A DNA stretch of 63,805 nt, filler included, from Craspedostauros australis (Eukaryota), in assembly GCA_030167865.1 (NCBI GenBank). It is 21 parts of 21 records of this genome, joined end to end, with 100 filler letters (N's around TTAATTAATTAA, not from the genome) between each part and the next. Parts side by side here need not be neighbours in the genome. Positions count along the whole stretch, not along the records: positions 14,044 to 15,601 come from JALAGF010002833.1; positions 15,702 to 18,656 come from JALAGF010002834.1; 19 more parts are not named here. One strand, written 5' to 3'. Under the pieces are notes generated by a model. That model did not search any database, was not told where the DNA came from, and worked only from the letters and a program-made list of their open reading frames with translations. Of the stretch, positions 13,944-52,473 are shown one piece after another. Made by a program: the position numbers and the translations under genes. The stretch's first letter is position 1. Every line of letters begins with the position of its first letter.

Positions 13944-15767
13944 NNNNNNNNNNNNNNNNNNNNNNNNNNNNNNNNNNNNNNNNNNNNTTAATTAATTAAN
14001 NNNNNNNNNNNNNNNNNNNNNNNNNNNNNNNNNNNNNNNNNNNTGCGAAGAACAGAGCAGGTGTGATTCAATGATGGCAAAGCAGCCTATTTGCACTCAT
14101 GACTGATACCACTGGTTGCCTGATCTGCGCACTGAATGAAGCAACACTGGCATGGCTGGAAAAGAGGTGACGCGAAGAAGTGTCGACAGCGTATGAGCAC
14201 GAACAGAAGCACCAAACAAGACTTGTGGTTGTTTTGCATGTATTCATAAGGGGGGCAGACACAAAGTATTCTATTGTATAATATGCTGGAGTAGAGCAGA
14301 GCCGAGTAGTGCAGAGTCTTTGTTCTGATATGAGCAAGAGCGTGAAGAGTACCAGCCAAAGCATTCATCATGCCATGCGTCGGTTTTGGGGTTGGTGCCA
14401 ACACATCGCCACACACCAAACTTGCGCTGTGTGCTCAAGTCGGCATGCGAAGAAATGTGCTGTTTGATTGCATTGCCACGTCTCCAGGACTGTTGCAATG
14501 CGTGTGGTGAAGTGCTGGCACGCTCTTCTCCTTCCACCACGCAGAGAACGTTCTGGCATTCCGTTCTCAGCCTCAACATGACATCCTGGCGAAAGGCGAG
14601 AACCAATACAGAGCATGTGAACGTAGAACACTATTGTTACAGATGTGGCAAAAAGAAACAATGCCCCTTGCATACTTATCCTGAGGGGAAGAGAACAACG
14701 TGCTTGTTGTAATTGTGGTGTTGTTCTTCTCCATGTCGTGCCTGCATGTGTTGTTGCAAGCAAAGCAGTGNNNNNNNNNNNNNNNNNNNNNNNNNNNNNN
14801 NNNNNNNNNNNNNNNNNNNNNNNNNNNNNNNNNNNNNNNCTCACATGGGAGCATGCGTTTGTTCCGAACACAATTTTCAATGTGTTTCGAAAACTGGTTG
14901 GTCACGATGCAGCAACAAACACGATTGTTGATGTGCTTCAAAAGTGCGCGACAGACCTGCGTTGGTGCCCAAGTTGCTGCCCGCACACCGCTTTGTGCAC
15001 CTGATTGCTTGCGTCATTGCGCATGCGCAGTAAATGCACGACGTGTGTACCTGTGCAAGTGCGGGGGAAGTGGATGCGCACGGAAAGCACACGTGCAGTG
15101 TGTGGCGCAGAAATCCCCAACACGTCTCCTGATGTGTGCATCGCGGTGTATTTCCCCAACTCCATGCATCTTCGCTTCATCCACGCAATTCCCAACGATG
15201 GCCATTCATCGGTGCATCCGCACAATTCCCACGACATCACTGCGACACTATTTGGTCATGACTATGACATAAGTTGTATTCTGTATCTAGACAATACTGA
15301 ATAGACTAACATCATTGATCACTCAAAAGAATCATAAAACGAAGAAAAGAATGATCTTATTCAATTTCATCGCTATCTAATGGCCAAGAACACTAGTAAT
15401 TTATTTGATCCTCTGTTGTTTATTGCTTAACAGCATTGAAAGTTAAAGTGGAAGTGACACTGTGATGGCAAGAGGCGGGATCGGATTCATGTCGTATCGG
15501 ACTTATACAAGACATGTAAAAGACATATTTTTGCATCAAAATGCGAGACGACCCGGATGTGCAGAGAATGTGCAAATTGAAGGGAAGGTGTTGGCAAATG
15601 TNNNNNNNNNNNNNNNNNNNNNNNNNNNNNNNNNNNNNNNNNNNNTTAATTAATTAANNNNNNNNNNNNNNNNNNNNNNNNNNNNNNNNNNNNNNNNNNN
15701 NTGGCCTACCGTGGTGATGACGGGTAACGGGGGATTAGGGTTTGATTCCGGAGAGGGGGCCTGAGAG

Positions 15768-15926
15768 GTACGTTTCCTTGTTTTCTTGCTTTCTCATTAC
15801 ACCAAATCACTTGGTGTGCGAAGATCTTCAATGAAATCGATTCAATTCAATCAATTCAATCAATCATCTCACACATACATATTATATCCTCCCCTTCTTT
15901 TCACAATAACATTCCAACAATTACAG
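15768..15926 (+). other. 18S intron 1 (159 nt)
   Basis: GTACGT...TTACAG with pyrimidine-rich 3' part. Confidence 0.92.
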
Positions 15927-15987
15927 ACGGCCACCACATCCAAGGAAGGCAGCAGGCGCGTAAATTACCCAATTTCGACACGAAGAG

Positions 15988-16155
15988 GTACGTACAACTT
16001 GAACCGACCAAACCAAGTCAAAGTAGATACAACACATCACATCGATCCATAGTAAAAGCATGCATACATATATATATACAACACCCACTCACACATCCAT
16101 TCCTATTCATACACCATTTCCCTCCCTTACCCTTTCCCATCTCTAACAACTTCAG
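15988..16155 (+). other. 18S intron 2 (168 nt)
   Basis: GTACGT...CTCTAAC..TTCAG. Confidence 0.92.
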
Positions 16156-16255
16156 GTAGTGACAATAAATAACAATGCCGGGCCTTTCTAGGTCTGGCAA
16201 TTGGAATGAGAACAATTTAAATCTCTTATCGAGGATCAATTGGAGGGCAAGTCTG

Positions 16256-16607
16256 GTAAGTAACAGCGACAGTACCAGCGACAGTACCAGCGACAGTACC
16301 AGCGACAGTACCAGCGACAGTACCAGCGACAGTACCAGCGACAGTACCAGCGACAGTACCAGCGACAGTACCAGCGACAGTACCAGCGACAGTACCAGCG
16401 ACAGTACCAGCGACAGTACCAGCGACAGTACCAGCGACAGTACCAGGAACAGCAACAGCAACAGCAACAACTGACGTGGCACAACACGCACAGCGATCAA
16501 CCAAACCGAAAACAAACAACCAAACTAACAAACTTTTTCGATCATTCATTGACTTCTCTCAATACACACTATCACTATCACCACTATCATTGCCCTTGCA
16601 ATCACAG
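16256..16607 (+). other. 18S intron 3 (352 nt, contains minisatellite)
   Basis: GTAAGT...ACTAAC...TCACAG. Confidence 0.92.
16264..16443 (+). repeat. perfect 12-bp tandem repeat (CAGCGACAGTAC)x15 inside 18S intron 3
   Basis: Directly visible; followed by short CAGCAA repeats. Confidence 0.97.
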
Positions 16608-16627
16608 GTGCCAGCAGCCGCGGTAAT

Positions 16628-16808
16628 GTAAGTAACACCCCAAGAATCTGTGACACTGTGGCGTGTCATCGTCGGAATAAAGTCTTGGACCAATAGATCA
16701 GCCAGCAGCCAATCATACATATACTCACACATACGCAACCATATCTACTCTACTCTACTCTACTCTACCCTACCCTACCCTACCCTCTGTCACTTTTGGA
16801 AACTACAG
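16628..16808 (+). other. 18S intron 4 (181 nt)
   Basis: GTAAGT...CTACAG; (TCTAC)n/(CCTAC)n tract. Confidence 0.92.
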
Positions 16809-17133
16809 TCCAGCTCCAATAGCGTATACTAATGTTGTTGCAGTTAAAAAGTTCGTAGTTGGATTTTTGGCAGACGTTGGCGGCCTGACACTTAGTGTTT
16901 GTGCTTGCCGACGTCGCCATCCTTGGGTGGAACCTGTGTGGCATTCAGTTGTCGTGCAGGGGATGCCCATCATTTACTGTGAGAAAATTAGAGTGTTCAA
17001 AGCAGGCTTATGCCGTTGAATATCTTAGCATGGAATAATAAGATAGGGCCTTGGTACTATTTTGTTGGTTTGCGCACTAAGGTAATGATTAAGGAGAACA
17101 GTTGGGGGCATTCGTATTCCATTGTCAGAGGTG

Positions 17134-17371
17134 GTAAGTACTATATTACGCAATACATTGCGATACATTGCATTATGCATTGCAATATGCATTGCAGCAT
17201 ACTGGTCTAGATTCAACTAGACTAGACTATAACGACGCACAGCACCGTATCTCGAGACCAGCAGACACAAGAAACCATTCACTCACACAACATTATCCAT
17301 CTTCACTCCACTTCACTCCACTCCACTCTATAACATGGACTCGTCATCATTCAACTTCCTTCTCTCCACAG
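17134..17371 (+). other. 18S intron 5 (238 nt)
   Basis: GTAAGT...CTTCCTTCTCTCCACAG. Confidence 0.92.
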
Positions 17372-17469
17372 AAATTCTTGGATTTCTGGAAGACGAACTA
17401 CTGCGAAAGCATTTGTCAAGGATGTTTTTATCAATCAAGATCGAAAGTCAGGGGATCGAAGATGATCAG

Positions 17470-17678
17470 GTACGTTCAAATCATTGCTACCACGCTATAT
17501 GCTACGCCTGTATGCTATGCACCAGGCATAGCCACTCTTGCAACTCTCTCGAACTATTGCACGACACGACATCACACGACATGGCACTAACCTAATATCC
17601 AACATCACTCCATCTTCATTTCCGTCTCCATCTCTTCCACATGTTCTACATTCCACACCTTGCTCCTCGAATTATCAG
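17470..17678 (+). other. 18S intron 6 (209 nt)
   Basis: GTACGT...ACTAAC...TATCAG. Confidence 0.92.
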
Positions 17679-17782
17679 ATACCATCGTAGTCTTGACCAT
17701 AAACTATGCCGACAAGGGATTGGTGGGGTTTCGTTTAGTCCTCATCAGCACCTTACGAGAAATCATAAGTCTTTGGGTTCCG

Positions 17783-18022
17783 GTAAGTCCGCAATTGGAG
17801 TGGCGACAGATGTGCATCTACGCTTTGCTGCTGCTCTGCGTAGTTGGGACACTCTGCTTCTGGACTGCACATGTTCAATTTCAATCTCATGAGCACACAC
17901 ACATCCAACCCGACGCAAACAAACGATCCAACTAACCACATTCTGTTCTGCTCTTTTCCTCCCAAAACTACATTCCGACACGAATCAATCGATCACTCGA
18001 CTCAACTCAACTTGACTTGCAG
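17783..18022 (+). other. 18S intron 7 (240 nt)
   Basis: GTAAGT...ACTAAC...TTGCAG. Confidence 0.92.
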
Positions 18023-18033
18023 GGGGGAGTATG

Positions 18034-18238
18034 GTAAGTTAACTGAAGCTCTGCTGCTGCTGCCGATCGAAGCATATTGACATAAACGCCAAGCGCGGCA
18101 GATAGATGGATTAATACAATACAATACAATACAGACAGACGATCAAATTGAACTCATGACCCCGATACTTACCTATTCCATTCCAATTCCCTCTTTCCCT
18201 CCTTCTTGGCTCTCCATTTACTACGATTACAATTACAG
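18034..18238 (+). other. 18S intron 8 (205 nt)
   Basis: GTAAGT...polypyrimidine...TTACAG. Confidence 0.92.
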
Positions 18239-18284
18239 GTCGCAAGGCTGAAACTTAAAGAAATTGACGGAAGGGCACCACCAG

Positions 18285-18486
18285 GTACGTTTCATCATCA
18301 TCTTTAACTGCTTCTACGCCAACGACGACCAGTATTCGAGATTGATACTGACACGCCATGAAATTCATGACGACCACATCATCTCACAAAATCCTTTCTC
18401 TTCCTATCCACGACATTACATTACATTACATCACATTACATTGACTGGCTCATCGACCCATCACATCCTCCTCTTTCATCTTACAG
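18285..18486 (+). other. 18S intron 9 (202 nt)
   Basis: GTACGT...TTACAG. Confidence 0.92.
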
Positions 18487-18520
18487 GAGTGGAGCTTGCG
18501 GCTTAATTTGACTCAACACG

Positions 18521-18656
18521 GTAAGTTTGATTCCACTACATTATCTTTATTTTTTAGAAATTAAAGAAGGAACAAACAAACACTCTGATTTATGAGACAA
18601 AACGATCGATGGCGTATCACTCACACTTAATTTCTTCCACAACTTCCCTCCGACTC
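18521..18656 (+). other. 18S intron 10 (3' end lost in gap)
   Basis: rRNA homology stops at CTCAACACG and is followed by GTAAGT; acceptor not visible. Confidence 0.8.
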
Positions 18657-18756
18657 NNNNNNNNNNNNNNNNNNNNNNNNNNNNNNNNNNNNNNNNNNNN
18701 TTAATTAATTAANNNNNNNNNNNNNNNNNNNNNNNNNNNNNNNNNNNNNNNNNNNN

Positions 18757-20130
18757 GTTATCACCAAACATCCAGCTGGGACCGTCGATGGGAATGCCCA
18801 TCTCGCGGAGAGCGAGACGGAGAGAGATGATCTGTTCGGTAGCCTGCCTGGCGGCGACGAACTCAGATCCGTAGGTTGCGGTCTCGACAGTAGCCTGGCG
18901 CTTGCTGAACCACTCGATGGGAGTCTGGTTAACAAGATGGAGAACGCCGGTTGCGGACCTGCCAGTGACCTTGCAGTGGAGGAGGTTGGCATCCACGAAA
19001 GTTGTGGTGCGGACGATCGCGCCTTTCGGAGTGGGCACATCTGGGTCGGTTTCCTCCTGTGTTTTCCCGTACACGGAGTAGAGCCAGTCGTGTTTGGGGA
19101 CCACAAAACTCTTTTCATGATCGGGAACCCCGGTACGGAACCGGATGGCGGCATCGGGATGTTTGCGCAGGTACCCGTAGACGCGTTGAGCGCGCTCGAG
19201 GTGACCTTTGCGAGGAGCGGCACGGAAGCGTGCGAGGGTCATGACAGCGACAGAGATGTCGAACCGTCCAAGGGTGATGCACCATTGTAGAGCCCCGATC
19301 AGCGACATGAACTTGCGTTTGTCGATTTCAGAGAGCTCTGGTGAAGTGTCGAGTTCCGGGCTGTCGGAATGGTCGAGAGGGCAGCTGGCCTTCGTGGGGG
19401 CACAGCCGAACATGCGCTCGTAGTTNCCGAGCATGCGCTTGATGTACGATTGCGGGCTCATTTTCATGGTGCCATCGCTATCGCGACCGAAGTCTGCGCC
19501 GAGGTGGTATTTGACGGGTCCGACACCCTTCAGCTTGTATCCATAGACGGAAGTGAGGGTATCGAAGAAGGCTTGAGGGTCCTTCATGGTGGCCATGAGG
19601 TCGTCCACGTAAACGCAGACGTACTCCCAATGGTCACCACCGTCGCGCATCCACACATCAGGGTCAGATCTGCATTGGAAGAATTGCAGGTCCCTGAGTG
19701 TGTCCGCGAGCGCTTCGTGGAAGCGTGCGCCGGAAGTGCGGAGGCCGTAGAGTGCCTTCACGATTTGCATCGTGTGGCCGGCCTTGTCTCCGAACTCGTC
19801 TCCAGCGACAAAGCAGATACGTTCCTTGGTGTAGGCTTCCAAGTACGCGTTGCCAATGTCGCCGACCATGGTCTGAAGCCCGTTCATCTCCCCAGCGAGT
19901 AGTGCGAGGCGGAGGGAACGGAGGCTGACGACTCCAGCGTAGGCTGTGTCTTTGCATGGCGCTGTCAGGTGGCCGCCAGCGACGCATCTGGCCTTGTGAC
20001 GCAGATCGTGCTTCACGGCGTATACCCATTGCAACCGAATCTTCTGGAACCCATCGGGTACCTTGGCATGGTATCCGAGGGTCTTGAAGGTCTCGTAGCT
20101 CGTGAGCTGGTCCATTTCCTTGCGCTCGGC
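18757..20130 (-). mobile_element. Ty1/copia (diatom CoDi-type) pol fragment: RT and RNase H
   Basis: KARCVAGGH, KALYGLRTSG, VYVDD, TFVDANL, SKRQATVETATYGSEF; frame open across the contig. Confidence 0.95.
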
Positions 20131-21266: not shown

Positions 21267-22988
21267 ATGTTCAATCGAGATGTGGCAAGTCTAATGATTG
21301 ACACCACAGAAGGGAGAATGAGGCTGGATGAGTTCATCGCAGCAAGCCAACGAGTCGAAAGAGGAGATTGGAACGAGACGTCCGAGCATGCATACACAGC
21401 TATGATGCTGGACCCTACTACCTTCGAGGAATGCTGGGATCATGCAGATCCAGCTAAGCGAAGGAAATGGCGGGAAGCCATCAATAAGGAATTCTACGAT
21501 ATGTTGAGACGAGGAGTCTGGCAGAAGATCAAGAAGAACGAGATGCCGAGGGATCGGCGATGTGTGAAGACGAAATGGGTCTTCAAGGAGAAGAGGAACG
21601 GAGTCTTCCGCGCCAGGTTGGTTGCCTGTGGATACTCGCAGATTGCTGGAGTAGATTTCTCCGCTCATCATGCGCCAGTGATCCATGACGCAACGTACCG
21701 AGTCATGCTGACTATGAAGATGCTGTTGAAGACAGACAGCATCATCATCGACTTCGAAACCGCCTTCCTGCACGGAGATCTCGAGGAGGAGATCTACATG
21801 CAGTGCCCCAAGGGAATGGAGCATGAACCGGACGAATGCCTGCTGCTAAAGAAGACCATCTACGGGTTGGTTCAGTGCGCAAGGCAGTGGAACAAGAAGC
21901 TTGTGGACATCCTGATCAAGCTTGGCTTCCGGCAGAGCAAGGTGGACCCATGCCTGATAAGTCGGAATCGGGAAGGGAACCTCGTCCTCATCGGAACGTA
22001 CGTCGATGATTGCCTGTGCATCGGAAGCACCCTCGAGCTGAAGCGACTGGTGCAAGACATCAAACGCGAACGATTCGGAATCAAGATCGAGGATGGACTC
22101 GAAGACTACTTGAGTTGCCGGATCGAATTCAACGAGAGCGAAACCAACTGCTGGGTGAACCAGCCACACATCATCAAGAACATCACGGATACATTCAAGA
22201 GCAACGTGATGAAGCTTCAACGATACGGAACCCCAGGCACACCAGGCCAAGGGATCCAGAGGAACAGCGAAGCACCCAAGGTCGACAAGGATCGACATAG
22301 CAGATACCGCAGTGGAGTGGGCATGCTGCTATACCTGGTGAAGCATTCGAGACCAGACATCGCGAATGCAGTCCAAGAACTCACGAAGGTGTTGGATGGA
22401 ACAACGACCACAGCATACAAGGAGATGCTGAGAGTGATGAAGTTCGTGTCGGACACGAGAGAATACGGATTGAGGATGGAGCCCAAGCCGTTGAACAACA
22501 ACGCATGGAAGATCGTGGTGTACACCAACAGCGAGTTCGCTGGAGACAAGGACAACCGCATCAGCGTTGGAGGACATCTGGTCCTACTGCAAGGCGTGCC
22601 CATCATCTGGAGATCGAAGGTGCAACGCAGCGTGACATTGAGCTCGACTGAGGCCGAGTACGTCGCACTGTCAGAAGCTGGAAAGGAGATCCGCTTTTTG
22701 ACTCAACTGATGGAGGACATCGGGTTGAAGATGGAGAAACCTGCAGATGTGATGGTCGACAACGTGGGGGCGATCTTCATCGCCACCAATCCATCGACAT
22801 CAGCGAGAACGAGACACATCGATATACGCAACCACTTCATCAGAGAGCTGATTGCTAACAAGGAGGCGAGAGCTCGATTCGTGAAGTCAGAGGATAACAT
22901 CTCCAACGGTTTCACGAAGAACACAAAGAAGGAGATCTACGATCGGCACAAGGGGAGCATCATTCAGCCCAGATCAGCATTGGACTGA
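21267..22988 (+). mobile_element. Ty1/copia pol (RT-RNase H), 5'-truncated, with RNase H catalytic Asp residues mutated
   Basis: KWVFK..RARLVACGYSQ, KTIYGL, TYVDD, YTNSEFA (D>N), RHIDIRNHF. Confidence 0.95.
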
Positions 22989-36568: not shown

Positions 36569-37030
36569 TGGAGATCCTGAATTGGGGTAGGCATCATTGT
36601 TGCTGTTGCTGTTGCTGTTGCTACTATTGCTATTGCCATTCTCTGCCTTGTTGCTCCGTTCCAGCATGTACTGATACACATTGCGAAGCTTTTTGAGTTC
36701 AGCCTGACGTCCCATCAATGGGATGTTGGAGAGGTTGAGTTTGGTCTTGAGCTTGGCGCTGAGTTCCTCCTCATTGTACCCATCATCGTAGAAGTCGTTG
36801 CCTGAAGTGAACACCTGTGATGGATCCCTTGTGTGTGGTGTATTCCTAGCGGCAGTAGTAGTAGTAGCAGTAGTAATAGTACTGGTGCCAGCGCCAATAC
36901 CAGCGCCAATACCAGCGCCAATACCAGTATCAGTGCCAGTGCCAGACCTTGTCTCTGCGAGGACTCGTCCATCTGCGACCGCAGTCNTGGCNTTGTCCAT
37001 GCTCATTGCAGTTGTCATCGTTTTGCTCAT
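36569..37030 (-). CDS. N-terminus of an AAA_16-family protein, copy 1 (3'-partial)
   Basis: KLNLSNIPLMGRQAELKKLRNVY resembles SLDFSRIGLIGRDKEKRVLSRLF, which precedes Walker A in the 31827-33439 gene. Confidence 0.6.
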
Positions 37031-38993: not shown

Positions 38994-39455
38994 TGGAGAT
39001 CCTGAATTGGGGTAGGCATCATTGTTGCTGTTGCTGTTGCTGTTGCTACTATTGCTATTGCCATTCTCTGCCTTGTTGCTCCGTTCCAGCATGTACTGAT
39101 ACACATTGCGAAGCTTTTTGAGTTCAGCCTGACGTCCCATCAATGGGATGTTGGAGAGGTTGAGTTTGGTCTTGAGCTTGGCGCTGAGTTCCTCCTCATT
39201 GTACCCATCATCGTAGAAGTCGTTGCCTGAAGTGAACACCTGTGATGGATCCCTTGTGTGTGGTGTATTCCTAGCGGCAGTAGTAGTAGTAGCAGTAGTA
39301 ATAGTACTGGTGCCAGCGCCAATACCAGCGCCAATACCAGCGCCAATACCAGTATCAGTGCCAGTGCCAGACCTTGTCTCTGCGAGGACTCGTCCATCTG
39401 CGACCGCAGTCTTGGCGTTGTCCATGCTCATTGCAGTTGTCATCGTTTTGCTCAT
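38994..39455 (-). CDS. N-terminus of an AAA_16-family protein, copy 2 (identical to copy 1 at all called bases)
   Basis: Same translation as 36569-37030. Confidence 0.6.
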
Positions 39456-46963: not shown

Positions 46964-49900
46964 AGACTACTGCATCACCAATGGAACATGACATCTGGAG
47001 AGCAGAAGGACACCTACTGACGTTGACAGGATGTCATCATGTCACCATGTCGACATCTGTCTCCAAGTCAGAGCAGGAGGCGAAGATCCGATGACCGAAG
47101 GGCATCAGCATCATGGATACAGAAGGTGAACTTCAAATGGCGAGTACTCATGGAGTAGGAGCCAGTACTGAATGAACGAAGTGTCGAATGCGGAGTACGC
47201 ATCGAACACGGAGTATCGTGTAGCATGAGCACACGATGTTGAGAGAGAGAATACAGAGAGGAGCGAGAGAGCATCTCGCGTACCGACTCATAGTCGGAGC
47301 CCGAATCTACGAAACAGATTGAAGCGCCAAGAGCATCGGGCAAGAGAACTGGTGTACACCGAGAGGATCGGAGTAGCCAACTAATGAAATAGCAAACAAC
47401 CGACTATCAACCAACACCATCTTCCACAATCGTAGGTTACCATGAGCGGAACTTGCCAACACGTTTATAAACGATAGATCAGGGCGAGCCCGCGGATCGG
47501 ATCGTGCGAGGAAGACGAACATCATTCAGGAGCAGCAGATTGAATGAGCGAGGAAGAGGAATTGAAAGATATCCCTCTGTCCCAACTAGCTATCAAGCAA
47601 GAAGAAGGTGCGAGTGAGACTCTACTTCAAGAACAGAAGGAAGTAGCAGCGGCTACTGTCCTATCAGGCAAAGACGCAAGCGCAATCGGCGAGACCGAAG
47701 AGGAACGGTCTGCAAGACTACACCGTAAGGAGAAGAGGATTCTCAAGGCGGTCAAGCAAGAGGAGACTGGTGTGACGAAGAGCATTCGCACAGCCAAACA
47801 GGGTGGGAAAAGTGAGACACCACCAGGAGGAGAATTTGTGAGCAAATCAATCCTCGCGAAACAACAAGCGAAAATCGAAAAAGTGACAACACAGAAACAG
47901 ACAGAAATCAAAGGCGCGAGCGCACCAACAACGAAACAACGAATCAACATGGCGACATCAGCCAACATGAACAAGCAACGCATCAAGGCGCTGATGTTCA
48001 GCGGTGAACAAGAGGATTATAGCGCATGGGAGTCCCAAGCAAAGGCATACGCTCATACACAGAAGACGAGAGACGTGATGTTGGGCAAGACGAAGATCCC
48101 AACAGTGAGTGAGATCGTGGCAGCCGCCGGCGATGCCAAGGAAGCGATGGAGGAAATCTACGAGCTGGGATGCGACTGCTTCAGCGATCTGATCCTCATG
48201 ATGGATGCAGAGAAAGGAAAGGGCAAGCAGGCCATCCAATACATCAATCAGTGCATCTCCGACGATTACCCTGAGGGGAATCCACACACGGCATGGAACG
48301 TTCTCGCGGAGAAGTTCTGGCCATCCGACGCGGCGACGAAGATCAAACTCAAGCGTCAATTCAACAACGAAAGGATGAAGAAAGACTCGGACCCCGACAT
48401 CTACATCACATGACTCGAGGGTCTACGATCGCGTCTCCACGATGTCAAGTACACGATCACAGACGAGGAGATGATCATGCAAATCCTCAGCACGGTGAGC
48501 AGCGAATACAGAACTCACATCGTGAACTTCCAACACCAACTCACGTTCAATCCGGAACTGGTTACCATCAACGCGATCAGAGGAGTGCTCCGTACTGCAT
48601 ACGCCACCCACAGAGGAGGCAAGGCATACGTCGACGACTTCCAAGACAGTAACACGAAGAGCAACGACACCGGCTTCACGAGTACCGGTAACTTCAAGGG
48701 TACTTGTCACAACTGTGGCGTGTATGGTCACAGATCCGCCGATTGCCCAGAACGTAAGAAATCGAACAACAAGAAAAACAACAACAACAACAACAAGATG
48801 AACGGAAAGCACAACAACAACCGCAACAAAGGAAGCGGCTTCAACAGGAAGTGCAACTACTGTGGCATCTTCGGACACCGCGAGGCGGAGTGCCAAAAGA
48901 AGAAGTTCAACGAGAACAAGAAGGCCAACGAACAAGCCAACACGGCAACGGAAGGACACAACAAGAGCGGGCACGAGATGGTACTCTCAGCAAAGGACAT
49001 GCCGCTCTGCATGTTGGTGTCCGACAACTACATTGAAGACTCCTTCTTCGATAACTTCGAATGCGTCGGGAGTGACGACGAAGTACAGGACGATGAGATC
49101 GTCCCGGAGTGGCTCAGCGAAGAGCCAATCATCCACGAGGTGGATCCAAGACGCGAAGTAAGCTACGAATGCTGCTTCAACGCGAACGACCTGATTGGTC
49201 CATATGGCGACGGAGCCGAGATGGGCAACGAGGCCAACGATAGCAACATCGAAGAGGCCATGAGTGAAGAGGCCGACGATGAGATCAACGAGAATGATAG
49301 AGGCCAAGATGAAACGAACGGCGGTGCGGCGCCTCCTCCTCCAGCGGCAGGGAACAACAGATCGGGCATCTTCGACGAAGATGATAGCGATGAAACCGAA
49401 AATCATCCGGACGACAGCTTCAATCCAAACGAGCGTGTCGTCTACCCAGCGAACATCGAGTTCCCGCCGATCGGGAATCCCAACGACTTGAACTACCTCC
49501 ACCGTCATGACACCATTCCGTATGGAACGGAAACAGCATTGGTAATCCAGAAGCAGCTCATCTTCGATGCCGTAATGGAAGCAGGAGTGAAACTATTCCC
49601 AGGCGTCGCACAAGGAGTGCTCAGACCGATATGGGTGAACATGATGGGATCCATTCTGTCCAAGAACTTCAGATCAATCGAAGAGATTCTCGTCAATTCG
49701 GTCGTCATCAATCGCATACTGGAAGCGGCTGACACAGAGACGATTCCAGAAACGGATCTGCATTACATCCTTGGAGGATGCATGTGTGTGCTCTTGCGCG
49801 AACGACCACGCGTCAACCCATATGATCCAGCCACAGGATTGCATCGAAACAGTACGATTCCATCCGACTACGCGCAACTACCCGACAACATGGATGACGA

Positions 49901-52473
49901 GGACCACCATCATCCATACAACGAAGACGGAGTCCACGAAGACGATGATGATGGCAGCTTCGACGACGAGATAGCTGCGGCAGCTGTGGAGCAGCTCCAC
50001 GAACTGAGCACCAGATACAAGGGCAAGGTCAACAAGGACACCTGGCTCACCAACAGTGGAGCTTCGTGTCACATCGTCAACTCGGACGCCGCTCTCTTCA
50101 ACGTGCGGCACATCAAGTCTTTCGTCCAAGTGGGAGACAGCACGAAGCTGGACTCTCCCAAGATGGGATCCATTCGCTTGAAGGTCAAGCAGCGAGACAA
50201 CACTGGCCACATCATCCGGCTTGATGATGTGAAGTACACACCAACAATGGCGGTGAACCTTTTCTCAACAAACAAGACTCTGTACAATGGTTACCAGCTT
50301 GGTAACAACGGCATTTTGATGGACATCATCAACGGATCCGGAACGAAGATTGTGTTTGATCGAGTCTTCCCCACATCCAACGGATTCATCACAGGAGTGC
50401 AGATGCATCCCATCATGCCATCAAACGACGACAAGGCTTCCACAGCCATCATCAAGAATCCATCCAAGGAGATCAGCGCGGTGAACTTGCACCGAATGCT
50501 CGGCCACGCGCCACTCGAGACCATGAAGCGGACGGCCGCTCAGTACGGATGGAAGATCATCGGCGAGATGCCGGTATGTCGCGACTGCGCGGTCGCGAAC
50601 GCAAGAGTGAAGAACATCCCGAAGGCAACGATTCCAAGAGCAACTCGCCGCGGCGAACGACTCTTCATTGACATTAGTTACACTAAACACATAAGCTTCA
50701 GAGATAAACGCTACTGGACCCTGATTGTGGACGACTGCACAGATCACTGCTGGAGTTTCTTTCTCAAGAACAAGAGTGACCAACCAGGGTACATCAAACG
50801 ATTCGTTCAGACGATCAAGTCACAGACTGGTGATCAACAAATCATCTTCCGAGGAGACAACAGCGGAGAGAACAAATCTACGCAGGATACTCTCATCGAT
50901 GCAGGACTCAATGTGAAATTCGAATTCACGGCATCAAACACGCCGCAACAGAACGGTAGAGTAGAACACAAGTTTGCGTACCTCTACACCAAGATCCGCT
51001 CCATGCTCAACGGAGCACAACTCGACGAAGAGTATAGGCATGGCCTATGGGCAGCAGCTGCTAGCACTGCCACCGCCATTGCCAACATCACCGTAGCGAA
51101 GAACCAGAAGGAGTCACCACATCGACAATTCTTCGGCAACGATCCACCATATGCGGATGCACTCCGNACNTTNGGAGAGGTGGGTGTTGTGAAGACTACC
51201 TACGGCGGGATCACCGCCAAACTCAAGAATAGAGGAGAAGAGATGGTGTTCATCGGATATGCACACCAACACGCATCAGGGGTCGACAACATGTACAGAC
51301 CATCGACCAAGTCACTCATCTGTTCACGGGACATCAAGTGGCTCAACCAATCATACGGACAGTTCCGTGGCTGGGCACCAGCACCAAACATATCCAGCGA
51401 AATGGGAACGACAGACGCAGACGGCTTCACAACCATCGGATAGAAGGGAGCAATGCCAAGGATGGCAATGCGTCAAACATCAGAAGCGAAGAGAGTATCT
51501 TTCGCCGACACGAACAAGTATCACATCATATCAGATAGCGACGATGAGGATGACGAAGACAATGGAGCAGTGACTCAAGTAATCCATAACAACAACGAAG
51601 ATGGGAGCGAATCCAATCAGGAGGATGACGAAATCCAACCATCCGGTGATGAAGCCGACGATGACACAGGCGTCACTCCTCCAAACACACCAGCAAGGTC
51701 TACACATGACACACCATCCAGACCTCCACCAACCAAACCAAGCAAGCGTGACATAGCTAGAAAGGAGAGAATCCGACGTCATGAAGCACGAGGCAGGAAG
51801 GGAGAAACCAATCCCAAACCGACTGCAGGGAAGAGCATTCCTAGAGCTCTGCGTGAGCTCGCAGACTTCAACGAACGAGGTCGAAAGGAGGAAGGCTATG
51901 AGCAAGTCATCATCCAATGACGACAGTGACGAACTCAGCGATGAGATAACCGACGAATCCAACAATGAGACTACAGATGACGAAGAAATTGTAGACGGAG
52001 AAGAAGAGATCGAAATCACTCATCATAGCACAACAGGACTCTACGGGATGAATGCAATCATCACCGAAGCACCAGCAATCGACATTGGACTGTTGATGCA
52101 GGACGAGAACAAGGAACCAGAGAAGCACATTGAACCAACGACATTCGATGGAGCCTTCAACCACCCAGATCCCATCCATCGAAAGGGATATCGAGCAGCC
52201 ATCAAGAAGGAGTTCGACTCCATGGATACACGAAAAGTGTACAGCAAGATCAAACGAGACGCCATCCCACGCGGCCGCAGATGCTGCAAATGCAAATGGG
52301 TCTTCAAGTTGAAGCGTGACGGCACACATCGAGCNCGGCTCGTTGCATGTGGCTATTCACAAGTCGCAGGAGTAGACTTCCAAGAGCATTACTCACCCGT
52401 CATTCATGACGTGACCTATCGGGTCATGATGGTGATCATGCTGATCAAGAAGATGGACTGCGCACTCGTCGAT
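46964..52473 (+). mobile_element. Ty1/copia element: 5' LTR family R (to 47461), gag with two zinc knuckles, PR, IN and start of RT; inactivated
   Basis: CHNCGVYGHRSADC, CNYCGIFGHREAEC, WLTNSGAS, LHRMLGH..CRDC, LFIDI..IVDD..RGDNSGEN..QQNGRVE, KWVFKLK..LVACGYSQ; stops at 48411 and 51441, frameshift near 51900. Confidence 0.95.

Follow-up and report, generated by a model that had tools for sequence, protein, structure and literature searches.

Intron-crowded 18S rRNA gene fragment with intact base pairing on an unplaced contig of Craspedostauros australis

An unplaced contig in the genome assembly of Craspedostauros australis (GCA_030167865.1) appears to carry about half of a diatom-type nuclear 18S ribosomal RNA (rRNA) gene with ten introns of spliceosomal type, a gene that is probably (at roughly 60%) functional or very recently inactivated and part of a fast-evolving lineage. 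The contig (15702..18656, 2955 bases, plus strand) belongs to a window of 63805 bases, the whole stretch of DNA that was analysed, whose coordinates are used throughout. Gene identity, exact exon-intron borders, intact pairing and an excess of compensated changes were established directly.

Gene identity and exon-intron organization

The window is a chain of small contigs, counted at more than 25, separated by a fixed 100-base spacer, composed of 44 N, TTAATTAATTAA and another 44 N, so that adjacency in the window is not genomic adjacency. Such joiners bounded the rRNA gene contig on both sides (15602-15701 and 18657-18756). Searched alone, the contig matched RF01960, the Rfam model of eukaryotic small-subunit (SSU) rRNA, with 386.2 bits (gathering score 50). 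Model positions 337 to about 1200 were present, and the contig broke off within the 18S gene at both ends, with 336 model positions missing on the 5' side and roughly 630 on the 3' side. A default Rfam scan of the whole window gave 266.4 bits for the same family, spanning 16831-17782 only (952 of the 2955 bases). No Rfam family besides RF01960 was found on the contig or across the rest of the window at E-values up to 1.

Reference sequences were 63 metagenome contigs that carry ribosomal DNA (rDNA) and contain a 29-mer identical to one in exon 3, and the 30 covering at least 600 nucleotides (nt) were aligned. Read against the RF01960 model, ten inserts cut the gene into ten exons with a spliced core of 865 nt. 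This core aligned to the intronless metagenome 18S sequence L038 without gaps, with 65 mismatches (92.5% identity, the best among the aligned references), so that the exon borders are exact to the base, including those of two micro-exons of 11 and 20 nt.

Exon 1 (15702..15767, 66 nt), which contains G15758, begins at the cut start of the contig and was followed by intron 1 (15768..15926, 159 nt, GTACGT...TTACAG). Exon 2 (15927..15987, 61 nt) contains C15932 and the hairpin UUCG-ACA-CGAA at 15974-15984, and was separated by intron 2 (15988..16155, 168 nt, GTACGT...CTAAC...TTCAG) from exon 3 (16156..16255, 100 nt). Intron 3 (16256..16607, 352 nt, GTAAGT...CACAG) and intron 4 (16628..16808, 181 nt, GTAAGT...CTACAG) enclosed exon 4 (16608..16627), a micro-exon of 20 nt without any difference from L038, which we take to be the 530-loop region. 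Exon 5 (16809..17133, 325 nt) included variable region V4 and was followed by intron 5 (17134..17371, 238 nt, GTAAGT...CCACAG) and exon 6 (17372..17469, 98 nt, with T17441 and C17449). Intron 6 (17470..17678, 209 nt, GTACGT...TATCAG) lay within a hairpin loop of the model, presumably the 790 loop, and led to exon 7 (17679..17782, 104 nt, with G17695).

Downstream, intron 7 (17783..18022, 240 nt, GTAAGT...TTGAC...TTGCAG) and intron 8 (18034..18238, 205 nt, GTAAGT...TTACAG) flanked the second micro-exon, exon 8 (18023..18033, 11 nt), placed by the gap-free alignment to L038. Exon 9 (18239..18284, 46 nt), intron 9 (18285..18486, 202 nt, GTACGT...TTACAG) and exon 10 (18487..18520, 34 nt, with T18496) completed the core. 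The last insert, intron 10 (18521..18656, at least 136 nt), starts with GTAAGT and ends at the cut end of the contig. Micro-exons of 20 and 11 nt between neighbouring introns of 181-352 nt are extreme even by the standards of mRNA splicing.

Base pairing of the spliced core

The consensus structure was taken from two cmscan alignments of L038, pairs being rebuilt through bracket matching and transferred to the spliced core. This yielded 146 consensus pairs, 144 of them inside the 865-nt core. Relative to L038, nine pairs were changed on both sides with pairing restored, five were changed on one side and still paired, and none was broken, while two further changes fell in pairs that were already non-canonical. 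Canonical pairs numbered 128 of the 144, and the other 16 were the same 16 non-canonical pairs as in L038. With the majority base of the 16 nearest references as the standard instead, the gene showed seven double changes, seven one-sided changes, no broken pair and three changes in non-canonical pairs. Differences at 15711, 15715, 16829 and 18496 have their helix partners past the contig ends and stand outside this tally.

A preliminary description of this DNA had pointed to three sets of compensatory changes, all of which were recovered against L038 at the coordinates given and on pairs of the RF01960 consensus structure. Position pair 15758/15932, an RF01960 pair spanning intron 1, is G-C in this gene and A-U in L038. 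In the hairpin of exon 2, positions 15974-15976 pair with 15984-15982 as U-A, U-A and C-G where L038 has C-G, C-G and U-A. Position pair 17449/17695, an RF01960 pair spanning intron 6, is C-G in place of U-A. Four double changes were additional to those described before, at 17095/17429 and 17109/17415 (both across intron 5), at 17724/17744 and at 17727/17741.

Sharing of these states with related sequences, which had been named as an outcome that would refute the preliminary reading, was found for one set and not for the others. At 15758/15932 the 59 metagenome loci covering the pair displayed A-U (42), G-C (14) and C-G (3), so the G-C of this gene is a common alternative state and nothing special. 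The stem UUCG..CGAA was found in none of 61 loci, partial versions of it being present as CUUG..CAAG in seven and UCUG..CAGA in one, and C-G at 17449/17695 was likewise unique (0 of 24 references). The stem of the metagenome contig L036 reads UCUG..CAGA.

Relative to pairing, the substitutions were distributed in a strongly non-random way. When the same 41 substitutions were placed randomly over the 631 modelled columns in 20000 trials, a mean of 6.4 pairs was broken (standard deviation 2.0) and zero broken pairs were obtained in 9 trials. Random placement never produced more than 4 double-compensated pairs, seven or more thus occurring in 0 of the 20000 trials. With the 25 paired-column substitutions shuffled among paired columns only, zero broken pairs were obtained in 2 of 20000 trials. 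The V4 block lies outside the Rfam model and was scored on an RNAalifold structure of 63 pairs computed from 15 references, where one double change, three one-sided changes and one broken pair were counted, the references having 0-4 broken pairs each. Selection has therefore acted on the folded RNA, and this copy is no long-dead pseudogene, as had been proposed from the covariation.

An alternative reading would make the contig an orphan or truncated rDNA copy outside the active array, derived from an intron-rich functional gene and dead too recently for pairs to have been broken. An unplaced contig ending inside the gene on both sides suits such a copy, as does the 17-copy repeat of a 12-nt unit in intron 3. 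However, no canonical pair was broken, and at about 0.27 breaks per substitution this limits neutral decay to an estimated divergence of a few percent per site; the splice signals were moreover perfect, at 10 of 10 donors and 9 of 9 acceptors. We regard a recent death of this kind as unlikely.

Sequence divergence and the question of a second rRNA class

The gene was placed by FastTree inside a clade of diatom-type sequences, on a terminal branch of 0.088, whereas those of the clade's 14 other tips measured 0.000-0.038. Nearest-neighbour identities of the 16 clade reference rows ranged from 93.4% to 100%. From the clade majority the gene differed at 63 positions, 19 of them with a base found in none of the 30 references and 18 at sites invariant among the references. 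The divergence noted in the preliminary description is borne out by this long branch and by the 19 unique differences. A 40-mer holding two of the variant sites had 0 exact matches in the metagenome collection.

The accompanying statement that normally conserved sites differ held in part: the sites do differ from the references, but the pan-eukaryote Rfam consensus gives all of them in lower case, as variable positions. The base of this gene was shared by 3 of 30 references at 16829, 1 of 30 at 16833, none of 30 at 16852, none of 24 at 17441 and none of 16 at 18496, and at 16829 and 17467 the gene has the Rfam consensus base. Positions 16852 and 17441 form a single model pair that changed from C.A to U.U together, both sites being invariant across the references. 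This is one of the two non-canonical pairs altered relative to L038, and the two partners of a conserved pair have here changed in a correlated way.

From divergence and covariation together, the preliminary description had suggested a possible second, divergent 18S class beside an intronless array. Such a class would be a structurally selected variant beside a canonical array, perhaps specific to a condition or stage or gated by splicing. The long terminal branch with its unique differences, the fully kept structure and the unplaced, fragmentary state of the contig are compatible with it, and intra-individual presence and absence of introns is described in the available text on the Chaetocerotaceae (PMC6306197). 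Against it, BLAST searches with the 63 related rDNA loci found no second 18S and no further rDNA pieces within the window. A compensated pattern is moreover equally expected of a sole functional rDNA: the 30 references, scored in the same way, had 0-4 broken pairs each, so the pairing pattern of this gene is that of working rRNAs and its covariation is no pointer to a special class. Published intron-bearing diatom sequences are also treated as the 18S of each taxon, the available text mentioning no divergent class (PMC6306197). A separate class seems improbable to us.

Ribosomal RNA types that diverge in sequence and are stage-specific within one genome occur in Plasmodium. They would be the analogue of a second class here, although they are not known to involve spliceosomal introns and the window holds no second type. 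In its strongest form, with a canonical array and a divergent intron-packed type whose variant-ribosome output would be gated by the spliceosome and not by RNA polymerase I alone, the proposal has in our judgement only a slender chance of being right. If true, it would represent a splicing-controlled form of ribosome heterogeneity.

Sequence of a contaminant, either a second diatom or another organism in the culture, could also have been assembled into the bin of unplaced contigs. Owing to copy number, the rDNA of minor contaminants assembles readily, and the small contigs strung together in the window are unrelated, so that neighbours provide no linkage. The core nevertheless grouped with diatom-type sequences, and a fucosyltransferase-like open reading frame (ORF) on another contig of the window was closest, among named relatives, to sequences from the diatom Cylindrotheca (about 28-31% identity), which makes it diatom-like and no more and is a matter of consistency without linkage. 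Contamination appears quite improbable.

Nature of the introns

All ten inserts displayed spliceosomal-type borders. Their 5' ends read GTAAGT in six inserts and GTACGT in four, in agreement with the spliceosomal consensus GTRNGT, and all nine complete inserts ended in CAG, in agreement with YAG. Models of group I and group II self-splicing introns had no match on the contig at E-values up to 1, whereas the same search detected a group I intron (Intron_gpI, 50.2 bits) in the related metagenome contig L036. An assembly artefact, or degenerate group I self-splicing inserts in place of spliceosomal-type ones, is made very improbable by this contrast, by the uniform borders and by the collinear exons that restore a gap-free core of 865 nt.

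Sequence was not shared among the introns (no BLAST match between any two at E-values up to 0.01), and within the window an introner-like repeated intron family was rejected. The inserts had no match in the 63 metagenome rDNA loci. In BLAST comparisons with the rest of the window, a single segment of intron 3 matched other contigs. It was 26 nt long, at intron positions 190-215, and matched in two places (36597-36622 and 39022-39047, 96% identity). Intron 3 harbored 17.2 copies of the 12-nt unit AGTACCAGCGAC at 16259-16464 (96% match), and shorter repeats with units of 5-15 nt occurred in introns 4, 5 and 9.

All ten introns were poor in G on the sense strand, with a pooled G content of 13.3% and a GC skew of -0.39 (-0.27 to -0.64 per intron), compared with a median absolute GC skew of 0.11 in 200-nt pieces of the remaining window. 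Mutational bias is one possible source of this G-poverty, and selection against G-rich pairing or against cryptic GT sites is another.

Comparison with other ribosomal introns

A raphid diatom, Olifantiella sp., reportedly shows heterogeneity of intron presence and absence in its SSU rDNA, going by the title of an article by Han and colleagues (J Phycol, 2018). Going by that title, it too would have rDNA introns, and copies within one strain would differ in intron content.

The closest likeness in the available literature is with the Chaetocerotaceae, in which inserts occupy 17 locations of the 18S gene, up to 11 per gene, with GTAAGT...YTAAC...YAYAG signatures (Gaonkar et al., PMC6306197). 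Spliceosomal-type introns are described there in 28S rDNA as well (PMC6306197). As in the available text on that family, a diatom 18S gene is here crowded with short inserts running from GTAAGT or a similar motif to YAG, and the total length of inserts exceeds that of the gene (PMC6306197). Insertion sites were compared through a numbering derived from Table 1 of that paper and anchored on L036, not through aligned published sequences (PMC6306197). In this derived numbering, introns 1, 5, 6 and perhaps 9 lie at or beside the Chaetocerotaceae locations 385-386, 891-892, 989-990 and 1147-1148, introns 2 and 3 miss published sites by 4 and 2 nt, and Table 1 lists no counterpart for introns 4, 7, 8 and 10 (PMC6306197).

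Differences from that family concern density, length and exon size. Ten introns are present in the 865-nt core, compared with at most seven in the same span of any taxon listed in Table 1, by our count, and they are longer, at 159-352 nt compared with typically 96-199 nt (PMC6306197). Exons as short as 11 and 20 nt are a further difference from the family as described in the available text (PMC6306197). Density, length and the two micro-exons are what stands out in this gene.

Spliceosomal introns were reportedly described in the rDNA of lichen-forming ascomycetes by Bhattacharya and co-workers in 2000. Like those of lichen fungi in the available account, the introns studied here have GT...AG borders and interrupt conserved core regions of rRNA genes transcribed by RNA polymerase I (PMC8527467). 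The lichen introns are removed by host splicing machinery, as yeast excised a lichen spliceosomal intron from its polymerase I rRNA transcripts, whereas removal in the present gene is predicted (PMC8527467). The lichen-fungal introns are also few per gene and short, with 57 nt in the tested case, unlike those seen here (PMC8527467). Many group I introns occur alongside them, whereas none was seen on this contig. Introns described in the available text on Haslea are organellar and irrelevant to this rDNA (PMC8070900).

Two related metagenome contigs were inspected. In L036 (1-1366, minus strand), an 18S sequence of diatom type, a GTAAGT...ACAG insert was located 4 nt upstream of the site of intron 2 of the present gene. 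A second insert, about 1 kb long and located at the 549-550-type site (530-loop region), was the one that gave the Intron_gpI match, and it encoded a 231-amino-acid ORF with a His-Me homing endonuclease zinc-binding loop (PF05551, E-value 5e-14). The other contig, L032 (1-2177), was discarded as an intron-bearing relative: about 105 nt of 18S are flanked on both sides by unrelated coding sequence of bacterial appearance, and it is probably a chimeric assembly.

Proposed processing and weight of the evidence

The pre-rRNA would be transcribed with the introns included. Because of the uniform GT...AG borders and the precedents of the Chaetocerotaceae and of the lichen intron tested in yeast, we infer that the spliceosome excises them from this precursor. 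The introns sit in core elements, two of them on either side of exon 4 (20 nt) and one within a conserved hairpin loop, and exact excision at the GT and AG borders would be required before the small subunit could fold. At least nine or ten splicing events would be needed for this half of the gene, and all canonical pairs of the consensus structure would be kept in the spliced product. Such a copy would represent the ordinary rDNA of the organism rather than a special class.

Word searches in sequencing runs provided leads only. One run, possibly of RNA, contained 0.24 of the sampled 31-mers of the contig, the share of 31-mers lying wholly within exons being calculated at about 0.20. Mature rRNA would fit this share, as would intronless DNA in which the exons are identical. 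Sixteen metatranscriptome runs contained 0.09-0.10 of the sampled words, leads that are uninformative on habitat or strain.

Several points weigh against a functional or very recently inactivated gene of a fast-evolving lineage. An unplaced 2.9-kb fragment broken inside the gene at both ends also fits an orphan or heterogeneous copy, and the covariation reflects the past of the lineage and is no proof of present activity of this particular copy. The long branch and the 18 changes at invariant sites could reflect relaxed constraint. The reference sample was biased by the choice of the 29-mer, so that close relatives may be missing from it. Only five of the ten introns, incomplete intron 10 included, had a branch-point-like YTRAY motif in their last 60 nt, and the YTAAC-type motif is thus mostly missing, unlike in the Chaetocerotaceae as described in the available text (PMC6306197).

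Other contents of the window

Contigs elsewhere in the window encoded ORFs with a Copia-type reverse transcriptase (RVT_2) and a polyprotein with zinc-knuckle and Pol beta-barrel at 18757-20115 (minus strand), 21267-22988 (plus strand) and 48471-51443 (plus strand), which fits the expectation for a bin of unplaced repeats. An AAA ATPase ORF was found on a further contig, besides the fucosyltransferase-like one, and single N calls occurred in many contigs of the window.

Significance

Diatom 18S genes crowded with introns have been published before (PMC6306197), and compensated substitutions belong to the ordinary evolution of rRNA. By rule the spliceosome acts on transcripts of RNA polymerase II; spliceosomal-type introns inside rRNA genes, known so far from lichen fungi and from a few diatoms, bend this rule. 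In practice, standard 18S primers and rRNA annotation fail on such genes, as the partial coverage by the default Rfam scan (952 of 2955 bases) displays. Being part of a genome assembly, the present gene would be a good natural system for the question of how a pre-rRNA can be spliced many times over without wrecking subunit assembly, and that of a link between intron load and a fast-evolving core.

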